From a virus (taxonomy: Duplodnaviria; Caudoviricetes): a DNA stretch of 38,015 bases. The position numbers were made by a program, and so were the translations under genes. How positions within the stretch are numbered: the first letter of the stretch is position 1; each line of letters starts with the position of its first letter. Of the stretch, positions 16,760 through 33,766 are shown one piece after another. The stretch lies in IMG/VR virus record IMGVR_UViG_3300025133_000299, positions 1 through 38,015 of that record. The stretch is one strand, 5' to 3'. Below the pieces are notes generated by a model that saw nothing but the letters and a program-made list of their open reading frames with translations, had not been told where the DNA came from and made no database searches.

Positions 16760-17074
16760 TCAGGCTTGTTCGGGCTTGTTCAGAAATGACTTGAGGAAGG
16801 CAACGAAGCCAAGGACCTGTTTCTTGTCGCTAGAATTGTTGCCAACTCTCCCTGCAACTAGTGCCCGACTATGAGTGACTGTGCTGTGGTGCCTTCCCCA
16901 AAATTTACCGACCTCAATGCTTCGGATGCCTGCGTCCACCGCAATAAACATGCAGACTGCCCTTGGCCATGACACCTTACTTTGCCGGTCCCTGCTCATA
17001 AGCCGTTCTAGGGGCAGTTCCCAATACTCTGCCGCAGCCTTGGCCAATTTCTCTAGTTTGGTTTCTTTTTTCAC
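16760..17074 (-). CDS. DnaA C-terminal (domain IV)-like HTH protein
   Basis: 'SRDRQSKVSWPRAVCMFIA...EVGKFWGRHHSTVTHS' matches the Bac_DnaA_C pattern. Confidence 0.8.
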   Translation of the reverse strand: MKKETKLEKLAKAAAEYWELPLERLMSRDRQSKVSWPRAVCMFIAVDAGIRSIEVGKFWGRHHSTVTHSRALVAGRVGNNSSDKKQVLGFVAFLKSFLNKPEQA

Positions 17075-21044: not shown

Positions 21045-21224
21045 TTAACTGTTCCGGTGTCTACACCTCTTGCCAAATTTTTTTTGGTAGGTGTCTACAC
21101 CTTGGTCTAATAAAAGCCTGCAAAATGATGACAGGCTACGTTGATCCTTTTCGCTCAACGCCCTCAACCTCTCCTTGAGAGAGGCAGGGACCCTGAACCC
21201 TATATGTTCATGTTCTGAATTCAT
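21045..21224 (-). CDS. Arc/CopG-like ribbon-helix-helix regulator (59 aa, not in ORF track)
   Basis: Hand translation MNSEHEHIGFRVPASLKERLRALSEKDQRSLSSFCRLLLDQG...; canonical RHH pattern; ATGA overlap with the upstream ORF. Confidence 0.75.
   Translation of the reverse strand: MNSEHEHIGFRVPASLKERLRALSEKDQRSLSSFCRLLLDQGVDTYQKKFGKRCRHRNS
21056..21101. promoter_or_regulatory. tandem operator-like palindromes GGTGTCTACACC (copies 3 and 4) at a probable promoter
   Basis: Exact copies at 21056-21067 and 21090-21101 flanking an A8 tract and TTGGCA on the minus strand. Confidence 0.7.
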
Positions 21225-21409
21225 TTACACTTGGTCTTGCGGACCGCCTTGAGGTGATGCAGTTGATCCTCAAGTCGAGCTATCCTCTCAGCAAGTGCGT
21301 CGAAGATGGGCTTGAAGTTGTCTGCCGCTCGCAACTGCGCCATGCACCAACAATATTCGGGGGGGATTCCTCCCCCAACCTCACAGTCCGATTTTTTTTG
21401 TTTTGCCAT
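21221..21409 (-). CDS. hypothetical protein
   Basis: 62 aa, C-terminal coiled coil. Confidence 0.5.
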   Translation of the reverse strand: MAKQKKSDCEVGGGIPPEYCWCMAQLRAADNFKPIFDALAERIARLEDQLHHLKAVRKTKCK

Positions 21410-22640: not shown

Positions 22641-22922
22641 TTATGTTTTAACACAAGGGGCAGGACATTGGCTGTCCCACCCCTTAAACTTTTTCCAGTT
22701 ATTTTCGACGACACCCACTTGGGTGTATGCATGGTCGTGAAGTTCAACGTAAGAATCAGTTCCTATTTTCTGGAACCTGACTGTTGACACATCGCCAACG
22801 TCATCCAGCACATCGTACAAACGAGAAATGCTGGCACGACCGGTGCCCTCAACAAGCGCAATAGCTCGGCTTGAGCCATTCAAGCTGCCTTGCCAATCAA
22901 TTAAATAAGCCGTGCTACTCAT
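22641..22922 (-). CDS. hypothetical protein
   Basis: 93 aa ORF overlapping the upstream gene. Confidence 0.55.
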   Translation of the reverse strand: MSSTAYLIDWQGSLNGSSRAIALVEGTGRASISRLYDVLDDVGDVSTVRFQKIGTDSYVELHDHAYTQVGVVENNWKKFKGWDSQCPAPCVKT

Positions 22923-23109
22923 CGCCGTTTGGGATGAACTTTAGTTCGCTTCCCTTGGCCTGATCCAAACCCCTTTTCATTTTTTCCTTCTCGCTCAAGG
23001 GTTTCTTTTTCTTGAAGTGACGGGACTGCATCGACGCTCCGCACTTCCCTTTGATCAAGGGAGTGTTCTCGGCAGTAGCCCAGCCTCTTGGGCTGTAATG
23101 CTTACTCAT
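22915..23109 (-). CDS. small basic hypothetical protein
   Basis: 64 aa, GGAGG RBS directly after the array. Confidence 0.55.
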   Translation of the reverse strand: MSKHYSPRGWATAENTPLIKGKCGASMQSRHFKKKKPLSEKEKMKRGLDQAKGSELKFIPNGDE

Positions 23110-23136
23110 TCCACCACCTCCACTCTCTTCGTTTTT

Positions 23137-23604
23137 GACTCGTTCACCATAAGTGGTTCACTCCCGCTATATGACTCGTTCGGCCCTGATGGTTCACTCG
23201 TATAGCTTGACTCGTTCATTCTTCCTGATTCTCTCTCTCGGATTGACTCGTTCTGTCTGCTTGATTCTCTCATCTCATTAGACTCGTTCCTGTCTTTTGG
23301 GTCCCTCAAAAGCTGTGACTCGTTCGTGGAACTTGGTCCTATCTTGGTGTTTGACTCGTTCGGTCAGGTTGGTTCTCTCCACAATTATGACTCGTTCGCT
23401 TCTTTTGGTTCTCTCGGAGTAAATGACTCGTTCCCCATAAGTGGTTCTCTCCCTACATATGACTCGTTCTGTTATCGTGGTTCTCTCTTATCCAATGACT
23501 CGCTCCCATTTAAAGGTTCTCTCAGGCTGTGTGGCTCGTTCTGTACAAGTGGTTCTCTCTTATCCAATGACTCACTCACGCACCTTGGTTCTCTTGGGAT
23601 GGGT
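23137..23604 (-). ncRNA. TIGR-like guide RNA array: 13 x 36-nt dual-repeat units, each with two 9-nt spacers
   Basis: + strand GACTCGTTC-N9-GGTTCTCTC-N9 at exact 36-nt spacing (23137, 23173 ... 23569), variable spacers, directly downstream of the Nop-domain gene. Confidence 0.88.
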
Positions 23605-23606
23605 GG

Positions 23607-24398
23607 TTAAGCTGCCTTAATGTGGTGTGCGTGACCCTGATGGGCTATCGGGTATGGCAACGGGGGTTCACACTTAAAATGCTCCCTATAGGCAACCTCA
23701 TGCCAATGCGCTAGGAATAGCTTAACTGCGTAACGCTTGGCCCGTGCATGGATGTGCCCCGCTGGCAGCTTGCCCACCGAGTAAGCCTTGTAGGCTTCGG
23801 TCGCCTTGCCAACACGCTTGGCACCTGCGTCTGCCTGCTCCTTGAACTCAAGGTTCTCGTTCTTGAGAATCTCCTGCTCCTTCCGTTGCAAGTAGAACTG
23901 ACCGTAGGTGTCGTTCTTGTTGCCCGACACCTTCACGAACGACTCACCTATCTTCCAACACAGGCACTTCAGGGATGCGTTCCACGGTCGCTTCTCGCCC
24001 TTCTCCCACTTGCAGGTGGGGTCCTGTCCAGCGAACCTCCATATGTGCCCAACGGTGGGTGCCTTGTTGATGTCGATGTGGGCAAGCAATCCTGCCGAGA
24101 TCACCGGACCAATGCCGGTGATACCCATCGCCCATTGACCGATGGGGTGGTGCTTGGCATACACGTTCAATGCCCTTTTAATATTTTTCTCCATCTCCTC
24201 GTTTACATCCCCAACCCAATCCAATAACGAGTGGGGTTCGTCGCTTGTCACCAATGCTCGGACCTGTGCCGTGGCACGAATCCTCGCATCCTGAATTTGA
24301 TAATAAGTGTCAACCAGAAATCGTGCCTGATCAACTGTCATGCGCTTACTCGACTCAAGGAGGTCCTTGGCCAAGGATAGCTTCGGCCTGATGTTCAT
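23607..24398 (-). CDS. tasA: TIGR-associated Nop-domain protein without nuclease domain (TasA-like; IS110 C-terminal/Transposase_20 homolog)
   Basis: Coiled coil 'YYQIQDARIR', 'GITGIGPVISAGLL', 'IWRFAG', 'PWN..LK', 'YGQFY..RK', 'GHIHARAKRYAVKLFL'; no N-terminal DEDD RuvC domain; adjacent array. Confidence 0.82.
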   Translation of the reverse strand: MNIRPKLSLAKDLLESSKRMTVDQARFLVDTYYQIQDARIRATAQVRALVTSDEPHSLLDWVGDVNEEMEKNIKRALNVYAKHHPIGQWAMGITGIGPVISAGLLAHIDINKAPTVGHIWRFAGQDPTCKWEKGEKRPWNASLKCLCWKIGESFVKVSGNKNDTYGQFYLQRKEQEILKNENLEFKEQADAGAKRVGKATEAYKAYSVGKLPAGHIHARAKRYAVKLFLAHWHEVAYREHFKCEPPLPYPIAHQGHAHHIKAA

Positions 24399-24652
24399 GC
24401 TGTCACCTCCACCATCAAGTTGTCATCAGCCAAGTGACCAAGCACAAGGTCGATGGCTTTTAACAAAGCAAATTTCTTTGCCTTGCGGATGCGAAAAGTT
24501 GCGCTGAACACTCCACCACTTCGGTCAATGTCCCGCACCCACCATTCACCTCCATTACAATCCAAAATAAAGGTTGTTCTGTTTGCCTCAATCACAAAGG
24601 CCAACCCGTCTTGCGTGATATCCATTTCAAGCCCTAGTGGTTCGTGTATCAT
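24395..24652 (-). CDS. hypothetical protein
   Basis: 85 aa, ATGA-coupled on both sides. Confidence 0.6.
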   Translation of the reverse strand: MIHEPLGLEMDITQDGLAFVIEANRTTFILDCNGGEWWVRDIDRSGGVFSATFRIRKAKKFALLKAIDLVLGHLADDNLMVEVTA

Positions 24653-25216: not shown

Positions 25217-26542
25217 CTACGCAGCCTTCGGTTCCTTCACCACCGCAACCTGCGGTTGCATGATGTCCACGATCACGGTCGGCTCGACTGTCGAGTCGTG
25301 GTCAGCGTAGACATCGATGGTGGTTTGAATGTTCTTATGTCCCAGTAGCTTTGAGGTGTATGCAATGTCCCGTGTGCGGCTCAGAATCTTGCTGCCGAAA
25401 ATCTTCCGCAACGTGTGCAACCTGCCATCGTCGTCGTCGTTCTGCAACGTGGTGCCAAACTCATCGGCAAGCAACTTGCGGCAACGCTCAAGGACCTGCA
25501 TTCCACCGATGACGAACTTCTCATCACGGTGCCGGTTGGCACCCCGCTTGCCTGCAATCTTCGGCAGGGATGTGACTCTCAGAATCTCGTTAACCAACGA
25601 GGTCGCCATCGGGATTTCACGGGCGACACCGGTCTTGGTGACATGCTTCGGCAGGCACAAGTTGGTGATGGCTGCGTTGTTCCGGTCGGCAACGAAGAAG
25701 TCCTTCGATGTTCCATAAACCTCCTTGCCACGACAACCAGCCGACAGGCAGACCGTCATGAGCGTCCACGCATCGGGGTCAACCACCTTGAGCGTGTTGA
25801 TAAACGCCAGCAACTTTCCGTAAGTCTCCTGAGTGGGTGCCTTGAAGGCAGACTTTTTAGTCTTGGTCTTGTCGAACTTGTTGGGTTCTTTGTTGAAGGC
25901 TTTAGCTTCCTTGATTTTGAAGCAGTCGAAGTTGTGGTGCTTCTCGTAGTAAGGGCGAGCTTGCACTCCGAAGATGGCATGTGCCCTCCGCAACTCGTCG
26001 TCGATGCTGCGCTTGGTCTTGTCCAGCTTGATGTGGTAGGCAACAGGGTCATCCTCCTTCACCATACCTGCCATGTTGGTTTCCAAGCGGACCTGCATGT
26101 AAGTGTCGCTGACCGGTCCGGTGAACGCATCGTCGATCCGCATCTTGTCGAGCTTGCCGGTCGTCGCTTCGGACAACTTCTGACGAGGCACGATAGCCTC
26201 CTTGGTGTGGGTAGCGTTCAGCACACGGTAGAGTGTCTGCACAACCGCAGCGGCAGCGTTCTTGGTGATGTCGATCAACCCGTCCTTGACACCTTGACGG
26301 TACATGGCAACGACCTCACCGATCTTCTCGATTTGGTTGCGGCGAGATGGTGCGACGAACCCTTCAGCACGGAAGTTGTCCACCATAGTTTTGATGCGAG
26401 CTTTGGCGACTCGCTTGTCGGCAGTCTTGAGAGATCGCTTGAACTGGTTGCCCTTCCCGTTACCTCCATCAACGTGGGGGAACTGAAGGGTGACGTAGTA
26501 GCCGGTCTTGCCTGTGGGTATTCTCGGATTTGGGTATTTCAT
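25217..26542 (-). CDS. int: tyrosine recombinase / phage integrase
   Basis: GCRGKE (R), TKT (K), HTLR, LLGH...TTIDVY catalytic residues; N-terminal 'RSLKTADKRVAK' arm-binding-like segment. Confidence 0.9.
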   Translation of the reverse strand: MKYPNPRIPTGKTGYYVTLQFPHVDGGNGKGNQFKRSLKTADKRVAKARIKTMVDNFRAEGFVAPSRRNQIEKIGEVVAMYRQGVKDGLIDITKNAAAAVVQTLYRVLNATHTKEAIVPRQKLSEATTGKLDKMRIDDAFTGPVSDTYMQVRLETNMAGMVKEDDPVAYHIKLDKTKRSIDDELRRAHAIFGVQARPYYEKHHNFDCFKIKEAKAFNKEPNKFDKTKTKKSAFKAPTQETYGKLLAFINTLKVVDPDAWTLMTVCLSAGCRGKEVYGTSKDFFVADRNNAAITNLCLPKHVTKTGVAREIPMATSLVNEILRVTSLPKIAGKRGANRHRDEKFVIGGMQVLERCRKLLADEFGTTLQNDDDDGRLHTLRKIFGSKILSRTRDIAYTSKLLGHKNIQTTIDVYADHDSTVEPTVIVDIMQPQVAVVKEPKAA

Positions 26543-26923: not shown

Positions 26924-29900
26924 TCAGTTTTTACCCCTGTTCAGGAGGGCATCCGCTGCCGCTTGAGTAGCTGCCACACCCATCAATTTGCCGCTCAGGT
27001 TGTATGCCCTGAACTTCTTGGGACCGGTCTGCACGATCCTCCCTTTGGTCGGGATCGTGACGACCTTACCGTCCTCCGAGACACGGGGCATGTACCTGTT
27101 CTTGATCTCCACCGCAGAGTCCTCAAACACCACATAGTTGTAGGTCTGCTTGAAGCCTTCCTTCGGCTTGCCCATGCTGGTTGTGGCACGGGATGAGGCA
27201 TCGGCAAACCGGTTGCCTGCTATGCCTATGTTCGCAAGCCTTGCAGATACATCTGACGGTCGCCTTGAGACTGCCTCTAGGTTCTTCACAAAGTGTAGCC
27301 CTTGACCTCTGTCGTTCACAAAGTCGGACAGGTACAAGTCGGAACCAGACTCGGCATCGAACACCCGCTTCCCGCCCTTCAGTAGAGCATCCTTCACATA
27401 CTTCGATTGCTCCTTGAAGGGCTTGTCCAAGTCTAGGAAGTGTTCCTCCTTTGGAGTGATGTCCACTTCGTACATGCTGCCCACCACAGGTTGATCGATC
27501 TCGATATCAAAGTCATCAGGCTTTAAAGATTCCACCGCACTCAAAGCCTTTTTTGCGTCTGCTAGTTTCGCTTTATTGAAATCCTTTTCTCCGTGTATCT
27601 CAATATTACTTGTCCACAAACCAACATCCCACTCCGCAGATTTCTTAAACTTGGGAATTAATTCTTCCTTTAGATACTGCTTTGCCCTAGCCACACTTGT
27701 CCGCTTGCTATTATACCTCGCTCGACCGACCACAAAATCGTCAATCCAAGTCCTTATCTGACTAAACCCTTGCTCCCCAAGTTCTGTCAGGTTTTTGTTT
27801 TTCAGCTTAACCTCGACATTGCTATGAGTGGCCAAGTTGCGATTATCGGTCAACTTATCCCGATACCACTCAGCCACACTCTTCTTCTCAGCAAAGTACA
27901 GTCCGTGTCCGTATGCCTGCGCCCCTTCACCGGTCCCAATCTTGTCGGTGGAGAACCTGCCCAACGGTGCCCCCTCTTCTGCGGCAAACGTATGCGGTGT
28001 GCCGTGGTAGGCTGGTATGTACCTGATGTCATCCGACTCCATGTTGAACCGGTCGTGCAAGGGGATTGGGTTGCCCCCGTCATCAAGCGTCACAGGGTCG
28101 GCAGACTTTATTTGGTTTGACTCAAACGCCGCATATGTGGTCCCGCCCCTCTCGGTTGTGATGTACCCATCATGCCCTAGCTTTTTTAGCAACTCGGTCA
28201 CGCCTGCGGTTTCAAAAAAACCATAGTCGCCTGAAGCAATCCACTTTCTCAGTCGGGAGTTGAACTCAGGCTCATGGGCAGCCTTGTCTTCCATCGCACC
28301 CTTTGACCTTCTCTCCAACTCGTCAACCAACTTAACCATCTTCTCACCCTCGAACGACACGTTAACCTCCCCGCCCCATTCCCTGATTGCATAAAGCGCA
28401 TCATTAATGTGTGACGGGTTTCTGTAGTCGAACGGATTGTCCAGCTTCAGGTAACCCTTAACTATATCCCCTTTGCCCTCGACTAGCTTGCCATAGGCAT
28501 CCCCGACATGCATTTGCCTGCCAGCAAATGTCTTTGCCACATCCTCGCTATCAGATGTCATAATATGCCCCCAAGCATTCTTTGTTGGATCGAACTCTGT
28601 GAACGGTCGGTTTGCTGGAGTGCTGTCATCCTCTGGAATTGTCCTGCCATGATACACCGGACCGGTGTCATACCCCGCCCGTGCCGCAGCCTGATCCACC
28701 GCAGCCTGCATGGTGTCCACATCACCCTTCGCCACAGCATCCATGTAGTCAGATTCCATACGGGCAGTCTCGGCAGGGAAGTATCGGTGCTGGCTTCGGT
28801 CGCCTTCCACCAACCCTCCTTTCTTGCCCACATCATCTGCCCTCACGAATACCGTGTTGCCCACAGAGATAGCCTCTGAGGCACTTTCTATCGGAATGCT
28901 ATGGTTGTCCTTCCGGTAGAAGTATTCGTGCCTGTGGGGGTCCATACCGACCTGCAACCACTTCTCAGGGTTGTGCAGGTCAGCGGGGATGGCATCATCG
29001 AGTAGCTTGCCTTTCTTGTCGTGGATGGGCACCCACTCACCCTCTACGGTTGCCATCGGAAATTTACCCATCCTTCCTTCGGCAATTTTGTTAATGTCCT
29101 TCACCCCTCCGATGGCTTTACTGATAAACATCGTCACGTTTTTGATCCGTGCAATGGAATCATAACCGTATATGTCACGGACGTTGGGTGCGTGGATGGC
29201 TACGGCATATGCCTCCTTGTCCAAGACTCCCGCAGCGGCAAGTTCACGGGTCCGAGTCAGGAAGGGTATGTCCTGCCGCAACCCAACCCGTTCGCCTGCC
29301 GGTAATTGTCGGGCGGCACCTATCAACTCCCGTTGAGCCTTGCTCAACATTTGCAACGAAGCCTTGAGAGGCTTGTCGCCTTTTTTGAAATTTTTCGCTG
29401 CCTCCCTCGCCTCCTCACGGGACAAGCCTTGGTCTGGAACTAGTCCACGCTTGGTCGGGATAGGTGACAGGCTGACCGGACTCCTCCTGTCCACAACCGC
29501 ATCCCAATCCCTGCCGGTGACGTTGTCCCTCCGTGCCTGCCCCATCACAGGGTCGGTGCTGCCTTTAATTGTCTCAGGCATGTAGTTGACAGGATGGTCT
29601 ATGGGTGGACCCATCTTGCCAGCGGTAAGTAAGTCCAATTCAGGGACGATTGTCTGCAAGGGCTGCGGACCCACCGACCCGTCCTTTCCAAACACATTGC
29701 CGCCGGTTAGTTCACCTGTCTTTGGGTTAACTGCCCTGCTTATGCCGCTGGACAAACTACTCAAGGGGTAAAATTCTTTAGCGTATGCTACCGGCTCAAC
29801 CTTAATGGTGTGCCCATAGTGATAATGTAAATTGGGTTCGTGAATGATGGGAGTGTCGGCTTTAACCTTCATCACCGCAACCACAGTCCCGATTGGAAAC

Positions 29901-32900
29901 TTCTTCTCATCCCACAACCCTTTATCAACTCCCATTCTTGCGGTTGCGCTTGGGCCAAAGCCAAGTTCTTCTGCCTGAGCCTTATTGAAATTAAACTTGG
30001 TGCCCTTGGTTCCCCTTTGGCCAGAAATTGCTTCGCCTGCCCTGTGCGTTAATTTGCCTGAGTCAACCGCATCAATAAACTGCTGAACACTTCGTATCTC
30101 TCGCAGGGCATCTCGTTCAGTCTGCAATGCCTTCTTCTGCATACCGGCTATTTGGCGAGTGTTTTCCATCAAGCCTTTGATGTAAGCATCCCCATGCTTC
30201 TTGGTAATGTCTCCACGGGCAACAGCATCCCTCACACTCTCTCCAAACAGCCGCAAACCGTATCGTGTGTTGTTGTGGTTCAGTTCGCCTAACATCGACA
30301 AGGCAACATACTCGGTGCCCACATCCCGAAGGTGTTTAAATAAAGTCTTGAAAGGTGTTGGGTCATACGATGCCCACTTGCCTTCCAGCCACATGAACGC
30401 ACGACCACCCTGTGCTGCAATCTCACTTGATGCACCACTCATTAACTCCCTTACTCCGTGCCCCAATCGATCTATAGACAAGGCAACCATTTTTTCCTGC
30501 TGCATATCACGAAAGTCCATGTACCGTGCCCCTTCGGGGGCAACGGGCATGAACCTCTCAGCCATTGCCTCGTTGAACTCGATGACCTCACCATGCTCCT
30601 TCACCTTCGGAGTGCCATCGGGCATCAGGTTCTCCTTCACCTTGTGGTAATCAAAGTGGAAGTCCTCCCTCATGGTGCTTTCCACACTACCAATCCGATC
30701 CAGCCTGAATGACTTCACAATCGATGTGCGGTCCACCGGTCGGTTGTTCAAGATGTCATGCATCGGACTGACACCACCCGATCCGGTCATGTCCCTCATC
30801 AGGAATGCCCTGAACGCATTGCGCTTGGCTTCACCTATACCCTCGGCACCACCCAATCCTTTGCGGTGGTTGTCCATGTAAATTTTCAGGTCCTCGTAAA
30901 ACCTCTTAACGTCATTGCCCCACAGTTCCAGCTTGGGTCTGCCGTTGGCATCCGTGTCTCTCTGCCAACGGGATACCTTGTCGTGAATCGCATCCACATC
31001 CAAGGACTGCACGGTGATGTTGCCCTCCTTGGTGATCCTATATTCAAACGGTTTGATGTCTCTTCGGGACGCAGCAATGTTTCCCATGAACTTGCGAAGG
31101 TTTCTCCTCCACATCCTTGTCGTTCCACGCAGGTCAGGGGTGCCGTCCTTGGTGGTCTTCACCACCTCGTTCATCTTTATCTTCTTCGACTTGGTTGTGC
31201 TGATCCCGTTGTACCAAACCATCGCAGTCGTTCCGTTGCCCACCAACTCGTTCAGCAACTTTAAATGCTCCTTCATTTGCGGTGGAAGATTGGATGCTTC
31301 TATCACCTCGTCGGGGATAGCCTTACCGGTCACCTCGATGCTGCCGTCAGCACCCTCACGGGCACCTAGCGTGGTCTTGTCGTCCCTTCCTATAAGACCC
31401 TTGGCAACCAACCCTTCACGCAGCCTCCGTGTTCCCTCGGCACGGTCGTGCAATGTCTTGGCAATCTCATCGTGCCCCTTGACGGTTACCTCTCCCTTGG
31501 CATTCTTTGTGGCAAAGTCATTCTCAAACGTACCGTCACCCTTGTCCCTCCAAAACCCTGCACGGTCACCCATGTTCAGGATGTCCTGCTTGGTACCTCC
31601 ACCGTCAGGGTTCTTTGCCCTTCGACTCATCTCATCAAAGTGCCTGCCCCTGTCACGGATATAGTTGCGGAGAGTCTTTTTGAATTTTTTGTCGCCGGTC
31701 ATATCCCCGAAGATTCGGGAAGCATAGGCACCATCCACCCTGCCTAATGGGTCCAGCTTTCCCCCCATCTTCCGTTGGATCGCTGCCTTGGTTCTCAGCA
31801 TGGCACCACGCAGGTGGAATAAATCTTCACCGGTCTTGCCCTTGCGAAGTTTGTTCAGGTTCCTGTCGAGTGTTGACCCGACAAAGTCCTCCGCAAAGAT
31901 TTCGGAATGTACCCAATCCAAACCAAACTGCTTGGTTAGGTCGGCACGTTCTGCGTTCACCGCAACATCGAAGTCGTCAACTCCTTTGGTTGGCTTGCCT
32001 TCCTTCCACCTTTGGACCGCATCGTCCGCAGCCTTGGAGAAGGGGTTCTTAAACCTTCGCCTCACCCTGTTCTCTGCCAACCTCTCAACGTAATTCGTAG
32101 CCATTGCATCGATGCGAGTCTGCCCGTAGACCCCGACAAGTTCTGCCGTCATCTCGGACTTGTTCACCACGGGGCTATCCCATAATGCATGACCAAACTC
32201 ATGGAGGATGTTTTGCCTGCGCCCCTTGACATCGGATGCCTCGATGTTGATGTCAATGGACTTCCTCTCCGGTGACCATGCCGCAGCACCTGCCTTGTGT
32301 GCCTTGTTGTATTGGGCATTGGTTAACAGGTTGATTGCAACATCCCCTTGAAAAATTCTCTCCAACGTTGCGGTCTTCAGCAAGGCATCCCGCCCCAACT
32401 TTGCAAACGCTTGCTTCGGGTCAACACCCTTCTTGGCCTGAGCCTCAAGGAACCGCATCACATCGGCATCCTCCGCTGACCTTCTTGCGTGACCGGTTAG
32501 CTTTGACAGACCGGCACCACCAAGTGCGGCAGGTCCACCAATTCCAATTCCAGCACCTATTCCCTGCAACATGCCTTCCTCTCCCTGTGCCAGATAACCT
32601 AACCCGCCGCCAACCACCATGCCGGTGCCAACACCGAGTGCCAACGTGCCGGTGCCTGAAAGTAACTTGTCTCCAGCACCACCCATGTGAAGGATTCGTG
32701 CTAGTTTTCTCAGGTTGGGGTCAACCGTGGAATCCATTGCAACTCTCTCAAGGACTCCGAACTGTGAAGGCCGCTTGCCAAGGGACTCGCCAACCTTCTC
32801 GCCCAACCTGCCAGCAACATCCAAAGACCTGCCTATAGTTGGTGCCGCTAGTGCAAGACCTATCGCCGGTTGTCCTGATACGGTTGAGCCTGCGATACCT

Positions 32901-33766
32901 AACACCCTTGCTGTCGTCTGGCTTGCTTCAGGGATTACCTTGCCGACCTTCTCTCCGATGGCATCGGTGACCTTTGTGACCCCCCTTCCGGTTCCACCGA
33001 CTGCCTTTCCTGCAACCCCTCCCACTTTGCCTGCCACTTTTGCCCCAAGAGATGGCAACTTGGTGAAGGCACCGGCAGCAGGGATTGCCATTGTGAAGTC
33101 TCCGACATAACCAAACGCCTCGGCACCGGCTACATCTTCTCCCTCGATCTCACCTATTAACGGTAGGGTGGTTTTTGTTTCGCCGGTTCTCCACTTCTCT
33201 CGCTCAACCTCATAAGCACGTTTGAGGTTGAACCGCATCTTATCCTTGGACAGTTGTCGGATGTAGTCCTGCCGTGAATCTTGGTCGTCCTCGCTGCCGG
33301 TGTCTTCCAAGTATTTCTCGTAGGTGTCGGCAGCGTGGAAGTCTTTGGTGAAGATGTCTCCAATGATATGAAACATGTCGGTCCCGCCACGGGCAGAACC
33401 AGACACCAATGTCTTAATTCCTTTTAAGGGGTCAGTTAAATAAAGTCCCTGACTAACTGCACTCCATATTCCACCAAAGAACTCTTCCCCAACCATCTCC
33501 AGCCCTTGGCCAACGATGCCAAGTTTCTCGTCAAAGGTCTTTTCCGGTTCAACCGACTTCGCACGACGATACCGCTCAAACTCCTCGTAGCCCAACTGTC
33601 GGCTTGGGTCGCCTTCAACTGCCTCCACCAACTCCGTTCCGGTGAAGGGGATGATGCCGCCTGCGGCAATTGCTCCACCTTCGGGTGTCGCAGTAGCCGC
33701 ATAAGGACCCAACCCTAACTCTCTGTTTTCTTCATCGGAAAACGGAATCAATTCTTGTGATGCCAT
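26924..33766 (-). CDS. large internal virion/ejection polyvalent protein with zincin (HEFGH) and two ADP-ribosyltransferase-like domains
   Basis: 2280 aa; G/A-rich hydrophobic segment, HExxH motif, 'VYHG...F.EF...YLKLDNP...GHDG...FESNQIKS' and 'AYHGTPH.F...GTGEGAQAYGHGLYFAE'. Confidence 0.75.
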   Translation of the reverse strand: MASQELIPFSDEENRELGLGPYAATATPEGGAIAAGGIIPFTGTELVEAVEGDPSRQLGYEEFERYRRAKSVEPEKTFDEKLGIVGQGLEMVGEEFFGGIWSAVSQGLYLTDPLKGIKTLVSGSARGGTDMFHIIGDIFTKDFHAADTYEKYLEDTGSEDDQDSRQDYIRQLSKDKMRFNLKRAYEVEREKWRTGETKTTLPLIGEIEGEDVAGAEAFGYVGDFTMAIPAAGAFTKLPSLGAKVAGKVGGVAGKAVGGTGRGVTKVTDAIGEKVGKVIPEASQTTARVLGIAGSTVSGQPAIGLALAAPTIGRSLDVAGRLGEKVGESLGKRPSQFGVLERVAMDSTVDPNLRKLARILHMGGAGDKLLSGTGTLALGVGTGMVVGGGLGYLAQGEEGMLQGIGAGIGIGGPAALGGAGLSKLTGHARRSAEDADVMRFLEAQAKKGVDPKQAFAKLGRDALLKTATLERIFQGDVAINLLTNAQYNKAHKAGAAAWSPERKSIDINIEASDVKGRRQNILHEFGHALWDSPVVNKSEMTAELVGVYGQTRIDAMATNYVERLAENRVRRRFKNPFSKAADDAVQRWKEGKPTKGVDDFDVAVNAERADLTKQFGLDWVHSEIFAEDFVGSTLDRNLNKLRKGKTGEDLFHLRGAMLRTKAAIQRKMGGKLDPLGRVDGAYASRIFGDMTGDKKFKKTLRNYIRDRGRHFDEMSRRAKNPDGGGTKQDILNMGDRAGFWRDKGDGTFENDFATKNAKGEVTVKGHDEIAKTLHDRAEGTRRLREGLVAKGLIGRDDKTTLGAREGADGSIEVTGKAIPDEVIEASNLPPQMKEHLKLLNELVGNGTTAMVWYNGISTTKSKKIKMNEVVKTTKDGTPDLRGTTRMWRRNLRKFMGNIAASRRDIKPFEYRITKEGNITVQSLDVDAIHDKVSRWQRDTDANGRPKLELWGNDVKRFYEDLKIYMDNHRKGLGGAEGIGEAKRNAFRAFLMRDMTGSGGVSPMHDILNNRPVDRTSIVKSFRLDRIGSVESTMREDFHFDYHKVKENLMPDGTPKVKEHGEVIEFNEAMAERFMPVAPEGARYMDFRDMQQEKMVALSIDRLGHGVRELMSGASSEIAAQGGRAFMWLEGKWASYDPTPFKTLFKHLRDVGTEYVALSMLGELNHNNTRYGLRLFGESVRDAVARGDITKKHGDAYIKGLMENTRQIAGMQKKALQTERDALREIRSVQQFIDAVDSGKLTHRAGEAISGQRGTKGTKFNFNKAQAEELGFGPSATARMGVDKGLWDEKKFPIGTVVAVMKVKADTPIIHEPNLHYHYGHTIKVEPVAYAKEFYPLSSLSSGISRAVNPKTGELTGGNVFGKDGSVGPQPLQTIVPELDLLTAGKMGPPIDHPVNYMPETIKGSTDPVMGQARRDNVTGRDWDAVVDRRSPVSLSPIPTKRGLVPDQGLSREEAREAAKNFKKGDKPLKASLQMLSKAQRELIGAARQLPAGERVGLRQDIPFLTRTRELAAAGVLDKEAYAVAIHAPNVRDIYGYDSIARIKNVTMFISKAIGGVKDINKIAEGRMGKFPMATVEGEWVPIHDKKGKLLDDAIPADLHNPEKWLQVGMDPHRHEYFYRKDNHSIPIESASEAISVGNTVFVRADDVGKKGGLVEGDRSQHRYFPAETARMESDYMDAVAKGDVDTMQAAVDQAAARAGYDTGPVYHGRTIPEDDSTPANRPFTEFDPTKNAWGHIMTSDSEDVAKTFAGRQMHVGDAYGKLVEGKGDIVKGYLKLDNPFDYRNPSHINDALYAIREWGGEVNVSFEGEKMVKLVDELERRSKGAMEDKAAHEPEFNSRLRKWIASGDYGFFETAGVTELLKKLGHDGYITTERGGTTYAAFESNQIKSADPVTLDDGGNPIPLHDRFNMESDDIRYIPAYHGTPHTFAAEEGAPLGRFSTDKIGTGEGAQAYGHGLYFAEKKSVAEWYRDKLTDNRNLATHSNVEVKLKNKNLTELGEQGFSQIRTWIDDFVVGRARYNSKRTSVARAKQYLKEELIPKFKKSAEWDVGLWTSNIEIHGEKDFNKAKLADAKKALSAVESLKPDDFDIEIDQPVVGSMYEVDITPKEEHFLDLDKPFKEQSKYVKDALLKGGKRVFDAESGSDLYLSDFVNDRGQGLHFVKNLEAVSRRPSDVSARLANIGIAGNRFADASSRATTSMGKPKEGFKQTYNYVVFEDSAVEIKNRYMPRVSEDGKVVTIPTKGRIVQTGPKKFRAYNLSGKLMGVAATQAAADALLNRGKN

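Follow-up and report, generated by a model that had tools for sequence, protein, structure and literature searches.

A nuclease-free, dual-repeat TIGR-TasA locus in an integrase-bearing phage and the turnover of guide units among its relatives

The 38-kb window (the whole stretch of DNA analysed here, 38,015 nucleotides) belongs to an integrase-bearing phage and carries a dual-repeat TIGR-TasA locus, an identification that we regard as practically certain. In our reading TasA, which is nuclease-free, probably cuts the array transcript into 36-nt guides and would use these to bind DNA targets of 16 bp that it leaves intact. The likely effect is repression of genes carried by rival phages or by other mobile elements of that host; this reading as a whole is given a probability of roughly 0.55. 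The locus and its surroundings comprise the following features.

25217..26542, minus strand: tyrosine integrase at the head of the gene run that contains tasA (PF00589, E 8.5e-9; phrog_1)
23607..24398, minus strand: tasA, 263 aa, with a coiled coil and a Nop domain and without a nuclease domain
23931..23957, minus strand: W148 to K156, aligned with the aromatic/basic pair of the DNA unwinding junction of SpTasH (W203/K211)
23631..23654, minus strand: Y249 to H256, predicted tigRNA-processing dyad, aligned with SpTasH Y289/H296
23604..23608, minus strand: first edge repeat, 5'-truncated; the last two bases of the stop codon complete the half-edge
23136..23603, minus strand: TIGR dual-repeat array, 13 x 36 nt, each unit consisting of spacer A (8 nt), loop repeat GAGAGAACCA, spacer B (8 nt) and edge repeat GAACGAGTCA
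23573..23608 and 23141..23176, minus strand: first and last predicted guides, with a mid-edge cut placed by analogy
23123..23135, minus strand: remnant of a 14th unit, consisting of spacer A (23128-23135) and the first half of a broken loop repeat
22641..23121, minus strand: RBS followed by two small ORFs of 64 and 93 aa, neither assigned to a family at the curated cut-off, 3' of the array with no predicted terminator between

The original prediction had described the 263-aa protein as IS110 C-terminal/Nop-like and devoid of a RuvC or HNH domain, and both points hold. The sole Pfam match is the IS110 C-terminal domain (PF02371), which stays below threshold (E 0.011), and phmmer against the PDB returned two hits in all, TaTasR (9MTY, E 1.3e-14) and SpTasH (21KL, E 5.1e-13). 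Structure prediction and sequence search, which had been proposed as checks for a Nop fold, were both run and gave TasH and TasR as best matches. The AlphaFold2 model (119 sequences, mean pLDDT 91.4) consists of helices only, its best ten Foldseek rows are all TasH or TasR (TM 0.57-0.68), with IS110 recombinases next (0.40-0.43), and its two long helices (residues 22-51 and 57-82) correspond to the coiled coil of Tas proteins. The model is helical from residue 11 onwards, with no room for RuvC or HNH, the HNH segment of SpTasH has no counterpart in TasA in an 8-sequence alignment, and no RuvC or HNH Pfam family was found in tasA or its three upstream ORFs. That alignment, on which the SpTasH residues were also numbered here, provides the two residue pairs listed above, of which, in the published work on Tas proteins, the Y/H dyad serves tigRNA processing (PMC13421893) and the W/K pair belongs to the DNA unwinding junction (bioRxiv 10.64898/2026.08.11.744272). 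H256 is invariant and Y249 is conserved in at least 90% of the 119 sequences; the wider set holds 6,466 homologues out of 6,819 candidates, restricted to candidates of a length similar to that of TasA.

An identical protein of 263 aa is found in row 118 of Table S1 of Faure 2025 (PMC12045711; 23606-24398, minus strand, cluster node14253). The protein is thus a solo-Nop TasA: fold, motifs and array all match TIGR-TasA, as the layout had led the original prediction to propose, and the protein itself stands in a published Tas table. The label ‘transposase’ that PHROGs gives to the tasA family is a misnomer. An IS110 transposase was considered and rejected, as Pfam, the model and Foldseek all lack the N-terminal DEDD RuvC-like catalytic domain. 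One tasA relative (L013, G008:C1:19949-20728) contains a single in-frame TAG under table 11, pointing to either recoding or a broken gene.

Directly past the stop codon of tasA, 13 units follow each other on the minus strand (23136-23603) with start-to-start distances of exactly 36 nt, in full agreement with what had first been noticed; the period-36 identity over 432 nt amounts to 0.59, whereas 200 shuffled versions of the window did not exceed 0.37. Column conservation divides the unit into two variable stretches of 8 positions, each followed by 10 conserved ones, and here the initial description has to be corrected, in which 9-nt spacers started with A in 24 of 26 cases. The count itself is right (A in 12 of 13 units at each of two columns), but this A is the last base of box C, which precedes the spacers as CCA or TCA, and the spacers are therefore 8 nt long with 10-nt repeats. 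Accordingly, the predicted read-out is 16 bp and not 18 bp, as the spacers are 8 nt long like those of SpTIGR.

As the two repeats closely resemble those of phage CGphi29, whose published guides run half-edge, 8 nt, loop, 8 nt, half-edge (PMC13421893), GAACGAGTCA is assigned as the edge repeat and GAGAGAACCA as the loop repeat, and the cut is predicted in mid-edge (GAACG|AGTCA) by analogy with the SpTasH tigRNA oligonucleotides. In relatives L001, L061, L062 and L125 the last element of the array is the first half of GAACGAGTCA, which agrees with this edge assignment. TasR repeats contain a box C/D pair and an additional pair in the edge repeat (PMC12045711). In the window, box C stands before and box D after each spacer, the C/D pair is present and the extra pair is confined to the edge: positions 4 and 7 pair in 13/13 edges vs 3/13 loops, and the edge 3:8 pair occurs in 12/13 units and covaries in relatives (A-T, G-C, G-T). 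The array also agrees with the published description of dual-repeat arrays, namely two alternating repeats of 8-12 nt, short variable spacers and a 36-nt unit (PMC12045711).

The 5' end of the array fits the typical TIGR layout, with the first box C (CCA, 23604-23606) adjoining the TAA stop codon of tasA (23607-23609). At the 3' end, the truncated edge and the terminator, which are typical and not defining, are absent from the window: the array passes through the remnant unit into the RBS and ATG (23109) of the next gene, and no terminator-like site was found 3' of it. This 3'-truncated edge is present in L125, L061, L062 and L001, and the spacer A of the remnant is identical to that of unit 7 of L061. 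Unit 1 (23568-23603) belongs to a position-fixed family in the marine group, and its spacer B and edge spell an RBS-like AGGTG five bases 5' of a GTG that opens a 17-codon frame. Many relatives have a G-U-rich variant, GAGTGAGTCA, as their first edge repeat (first units of L001, L002, L060, L061, L125, L007 and L017). A conserved hairpin in unit 1 (mean -4.8 vs -3.7 kcal/mol, p 0.007) was not accepted, the rows being related and some of them mis-parsed. Spacers A and B displayed neither similarity nor complementarity to each other (largest overall z 2.3). A CRISPR array was rejected on account of the two 10-nt repeats, the 8-nt spacers and the lack of any Cas family among the 31 ORFs of the window scanned with Pfam, the last of which is in line with the original statement that cas genes are lacking.

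Arrays were recognized in 80/126 loci of relatives, a set that includes the record of the window itself and duplicates, by a template parser that misses divergent repeats. The first spacer lies 1-7 nt past the tas stop codon in 29/36 distinct downstream arrays, and in 40/56 arrays, redundant copies included, an ORF of at least 60 codons starts no more than 100 nt from the array end. Edge positions 3 and 8 form a Watson-Crick pair in 558/682 distinct units vs 333 expected from the margins, a count inflated by relatedness and by parser templates that contain both edge variants, and positions 4 and 7 are paired in 647/682 edges vs 43/682 loops. Several arrays deviate from the common form: two edge-repeat variants alternate in L023:4702-4970 and L028:5808-6200, resulting in a higher-order period of 72 nt, a TasA relative of 44% identity is accompanied by an array with a 34-nt period (L018:5850-6020), and an unrelated ORF separates tasA from its 24-unit array in L003:5780-6613.

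The window encodes an SU10-type capsid and portal, a terminase, a primase-helicase, the tyrosine integrase and an excisionase-like gene, and tasA lies within the run of genes that starts with the integrase and extends to the replication genes. Three sequencing runs that contain at least half of the window stretch are labelled marine metagenome, one of them a possible source of it, and no RNA runs are listed among the sequencing runs with this stretch; no relative of the integrase was found in IMG/VR. A protein with a DnaA C-terminal DNA-binding domain (16760-17074; PF08299, E 2.5e-10) directly follows the primase-helicase, and a polyvalent protein of 2,280 aa is encoded at 26924-33766. It contains an ADP-ribosyltransferase domain (ART-PolyVal), has a 57% identical counterpart in L062 and is likely an injected or early host-modifying protein. 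L125 and L062 lack the cassette of 64-aa and 93-aa genes at the corresponding place. The module is flanked on either side by small accessory ORFs (24395-24652 and 22641-23109) that some near-identical strains have and others lack, which marks the region as an exchange hotspot. TasA proteins of 82-83% identity occur in L062 and L088, which have the backbone of the window phage, as well as in L001, L002 and L061, whose backbone is different; the primase-helicases of the two backbones are about 29% identical, and the module lies 5' of differing genes in differing phages.

By analogy with characterized Tas systems, TasA dimers would bind boxes C and D of the array transcript, and the Y249/H256 dyad would cut each edge repeat in its middle, releasing 36-nt guides. 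The resulting complexes may then open targets of 16 bp with no need for a PAM, and each spacer would pair with its own DNA strand, A with one and B with the opposite one. Bound TasA would sterically block transcription and leave the DNA uncut. Repression is the probable output of TasA on this analogy. Published TasA repression reportedly concerns a stem-loop TasA in a heterologous host. The original prediction had been aware of no established role for nuclease-less members; RNA-guided repression by TasA in E. coli, including that of an endogenous gene when programmed, has since been reported (bioRxiv 10.64898/2026.09.09.750476), as has repression by dead TasH in E. coli (bioRxiv 10.64898/2026.08.11.744272). 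For a dual-repeat solo TasA, binding of a 36-nt RNA is the only activity reported (PMC12045711).

Targets were searched as spacer A followed by the reverse complement of spacer B, an order derived from the published 8-nt 3' overhang, with the same units in control orientations as control. The 13 window units have no match in the window at 0-1 mismatch, the best being 2 mismatches for 1/13 units. No exact match was obtained for 126 close units in 298 kb of kin DNA (gaps -2 to 3, arrays unmasked; 6 one-mismatch matches vs 6, 7 and 9 in controls), for 656 units in 2.1 Mb of loci (53 one-mismatch matches vs 24-52) or for 100 units in the six records or prophage regions that carry them, and 135 units remained at control level in 103 kb and 205 kb of kin DNA. 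For L028, a locus with a 56% identical TasA on a 915-kb contig of genome G003 (a relative's host), 2.69 of the 3.06 Mb (88%) of the host genome were searched with 11 units, which had no exact match, 8 matches with one mismatch (controls 3-5) and 105 with two (controls 94-108). A single unit searched against IMG/VR hit 102 loci in 66 clusters, none related to the window phage, vs 62 loci for its reversed control; 16-bp patterns are thus uninformative at that scale. The original suggestion of rival phages, mobile elements or host genes as targets therefore keeps the standing of a suggestion, no search having risen above its controls.

Modified target rules fared no better: a one-base overlap of the halves (152 vs 163 +/- 10) and guides directed against repeats (31 vs 23.5 +/- 5) were not supported, and targets that combine an RBS with a start codon were rejected (16 vs 12.7 +/- 3 in 647 units; 5 vs 2.2 +/- 1.2 in the close group, in part from related first units). 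The best site of the first-unit family lies at 21293-21311 (minus strand, within ORF 21221-21409), where unit 1 of L061 matches with 1 mismatch and gap 3, that of L001 with 2 mismatches and that of the window with 3 mismatches and gap 2. About two such hits are expected among 126 units by estimate, so this site is only a lead at chance level overall.

The arrays of relatives show gain, loss, duplication and reshuffling of entire units as well as half-swaps. L124 and the window do not differ in their arrays, and L060, with 3/789 bases of tasA different, deviates in units 1-2 only. L125 has 4/13 unit families in common with the window, at other positions (window units 2 and 8 are its units 4 and 2, respectively). 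Single window units also appear among other neighbours in contigs of runs X4, X5, X6, X8 and X9, and unit 2 of L060 precedes window unit 13 in X5 and X6, all of these contigs being short and of low depth. Unit families are also common to L062 and L001, L002 and L061 (2, 2 and 3, respectively), with 57-59% of tasA third positions different. L062 and L001/L061, which represent two different phage lineages, have some units that are identical. The L004 group has preserved most of its unit order, with units gained, lost or duplicated inside the arrays, and spacers of common units diverge by 0-0.09, mostly below the tasA third-position divergence of 0.02-0.22, a comparison biased low because unit matching was capped by distance.

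Of the 644 distinct 8+8 units, 118 could be grouped into 51 families. The 106 differences between related spacers are transition-biased (A/G 31, C/T 27) and spread evenly over the 8 positions (chi-square p 0.44), so that no seed-like constraint is visible; adenine-specific, DGR-like mutagenesis was not seen in them. Half-swaps amount to 21 pairs with one identical spacer and the other differing at 6-8 positions, vs about 7 expected. Strict CRISPR-like polarity was not seen either, the changes leaning gene-proximal in some pairs and occurring throughout. One tentative proposal, which we hold to be possible with the odds somewhat against it, is that this clade can do without adaptation machinery for its TIGR arrays. 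A pool of units common to unrelated phages of one host would generate new specificities through whole-unit exchange at the 10-nt repeats, A/B half-swaps and duplication with point mutation, which would make the array a combinatorial library of guides, antibody-like in kind, rather than a CRISPR-like memory. Most units have no relative in the sample, which leaves room for capture from foreign DNA.

Who is repressed is the point on which the readings part. Rapid turnover of units fits moving targets, and because of this and of the elimination of the alternatives other mobile elements are preferred as targets, with odds slightly better than even. Silencing of host chromosomal genes (e.g. defence genes) by the TasA RNP during infection or lysogeny is unlikely: it would suit the position of the locus in the early gene run and the repression of an endogenous E. 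coli gene by programmed TasA (bioRxiv 10.64898/2026.09.09.750476), yet slowly changing host genes fit such turnover poorly and the L028 units lack an exact match in the 2.69 Mb covered of that relative's host genome. The cassette might instead regulate the phage itself, with edge processing severing tasA from the replication genes on the early polycistronic mRNA, or with guides aiding lysis/lysogeny control or the integrase, the latter an idea raised by Faure et al. (PMC12045711). The absence of a terminator-like site past the window array, the ORFs that follow so many arrays closely, the adjacency of box C to the tasA stop codon in most relatives and the weak self-site of unit 1 (21293-21311) all speak for this. 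Self-regulation has, however, no need for changing spacers, the module precedes different genes in different phages, and neither the 13 units in the window at 0-1 mismatch nor the 100 units in their own six records or prophage regions (exact matches) found a self-target, which leaves it as doubtful as host silencing.

Most units may also be without a current target, the module being a mobile hitchhiker whose spacers drift and recombine and of which few units are functional at a time. Target searches at control level throughout, transition-biased differences spread evenly along the spacers and a module common to two phage backbones are what this would produce. Repeats, period and catalytic residues are nevertheless conserved, the spacers of the L004 group diverge mostly less than tasA third positions (with the low bias given above) and targets may merely be unsampled, so that idle spacers are improbable as the general explanation. 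Translation of the array into a 12-aa repeat protein, named by the original prediction as a refuting outcome, is almost certainly wrong. Although 36 is a multiple of 3, the antisense frame of the window array has a single stop and the 656 units together contain slightly fewer antisense stops than expected (105 vs 128 +/- 10), stops interrupt all six frames and the longest sense frame contains 4 spacer-derived ones. Moreover, relatives have 64 steps of 37 nt, 35/56 arrays have a step not divisible by 3 (some of these being parser gaps), and the edge repeat covaries as a base pair. Repression of rival phages or other mobile elements stays the preferred reading.

The family (2025), its repressor activity (2026 preprint) and the window protein (catalogued) are already known; since the system is published and the protein catalogued, the locus adds no new kind of biology. 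The one added element is the strain comparison, with its unit swaps, duplication, drift, half-exchange and units common to two lineages. Near-identical strains and sister phages bear on spacer acquisition and natural targets, questions that both TIGR papers name as open, and their value here is modest; no published work on TIGR array evolution or natural targets was found in a search that left most subscription journals outside. If unit exchange, duplication, drift and half-swaps make most new spacers, TIGR guides would diversify without Cas1/Cas2-like enzymes. With 263 aa and its own predicted processing dyad, this TasA is also a compact candidate for a programmable repressor.

Among known systems, dual-repeat TIGR-TasA (PMC12045711; FpTasA) is the same in kind, its solo Nop protein being encoded in a tailed phage next to an array of 5-15 edge/spacer/loop/spacer units of 36 nt each; the window array differs from typical members in running into the next gene without a 3'-truncated edge and terminator. 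SpTIGR-TasH of Salicola phage CGphi29 (PDB 9W04, 21KL; PMC13421893) has the same 10-nt repeats and 8-nt spacers with near-identical repeat sequences, and SpTasH is the best fold match of TasA (TM 0.68), with the Y/H dyad and the W/K pair aligned. It differs in its N-terminal HNH nuclease and DNA cleavage, with 29% identity over 173 residues, and its array, unlike that of the window, ends with a terminator-like hairpin. MbTasA and PlTasA are likewise nuclease-free Tas proteins with RNA-guided DNA binding, repression being demonstrated for MbTasA (bioRxiv 10.64898/2026.09.09.750476; 10.64898/2026.08.11.744272). PlTasA differs in its stem-loop guides and 9-bp heteroduplexes, and the stem-loop clades lack the Y/H loop, whereas the window locus is of the dual-repeat type. 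The IS110 bridge-RNA recombinases (IS621, ISCro4) have a Nop-like RNA-binding domain in common with the window TasA, as indicated by the sub-threshold PF02371 match and the Foldseek TM of 0.40-0.43; TasA differs from them in being without the DEDD/RuvC-like N-terminal domain and in using a guide array in place of one bridge RNA.
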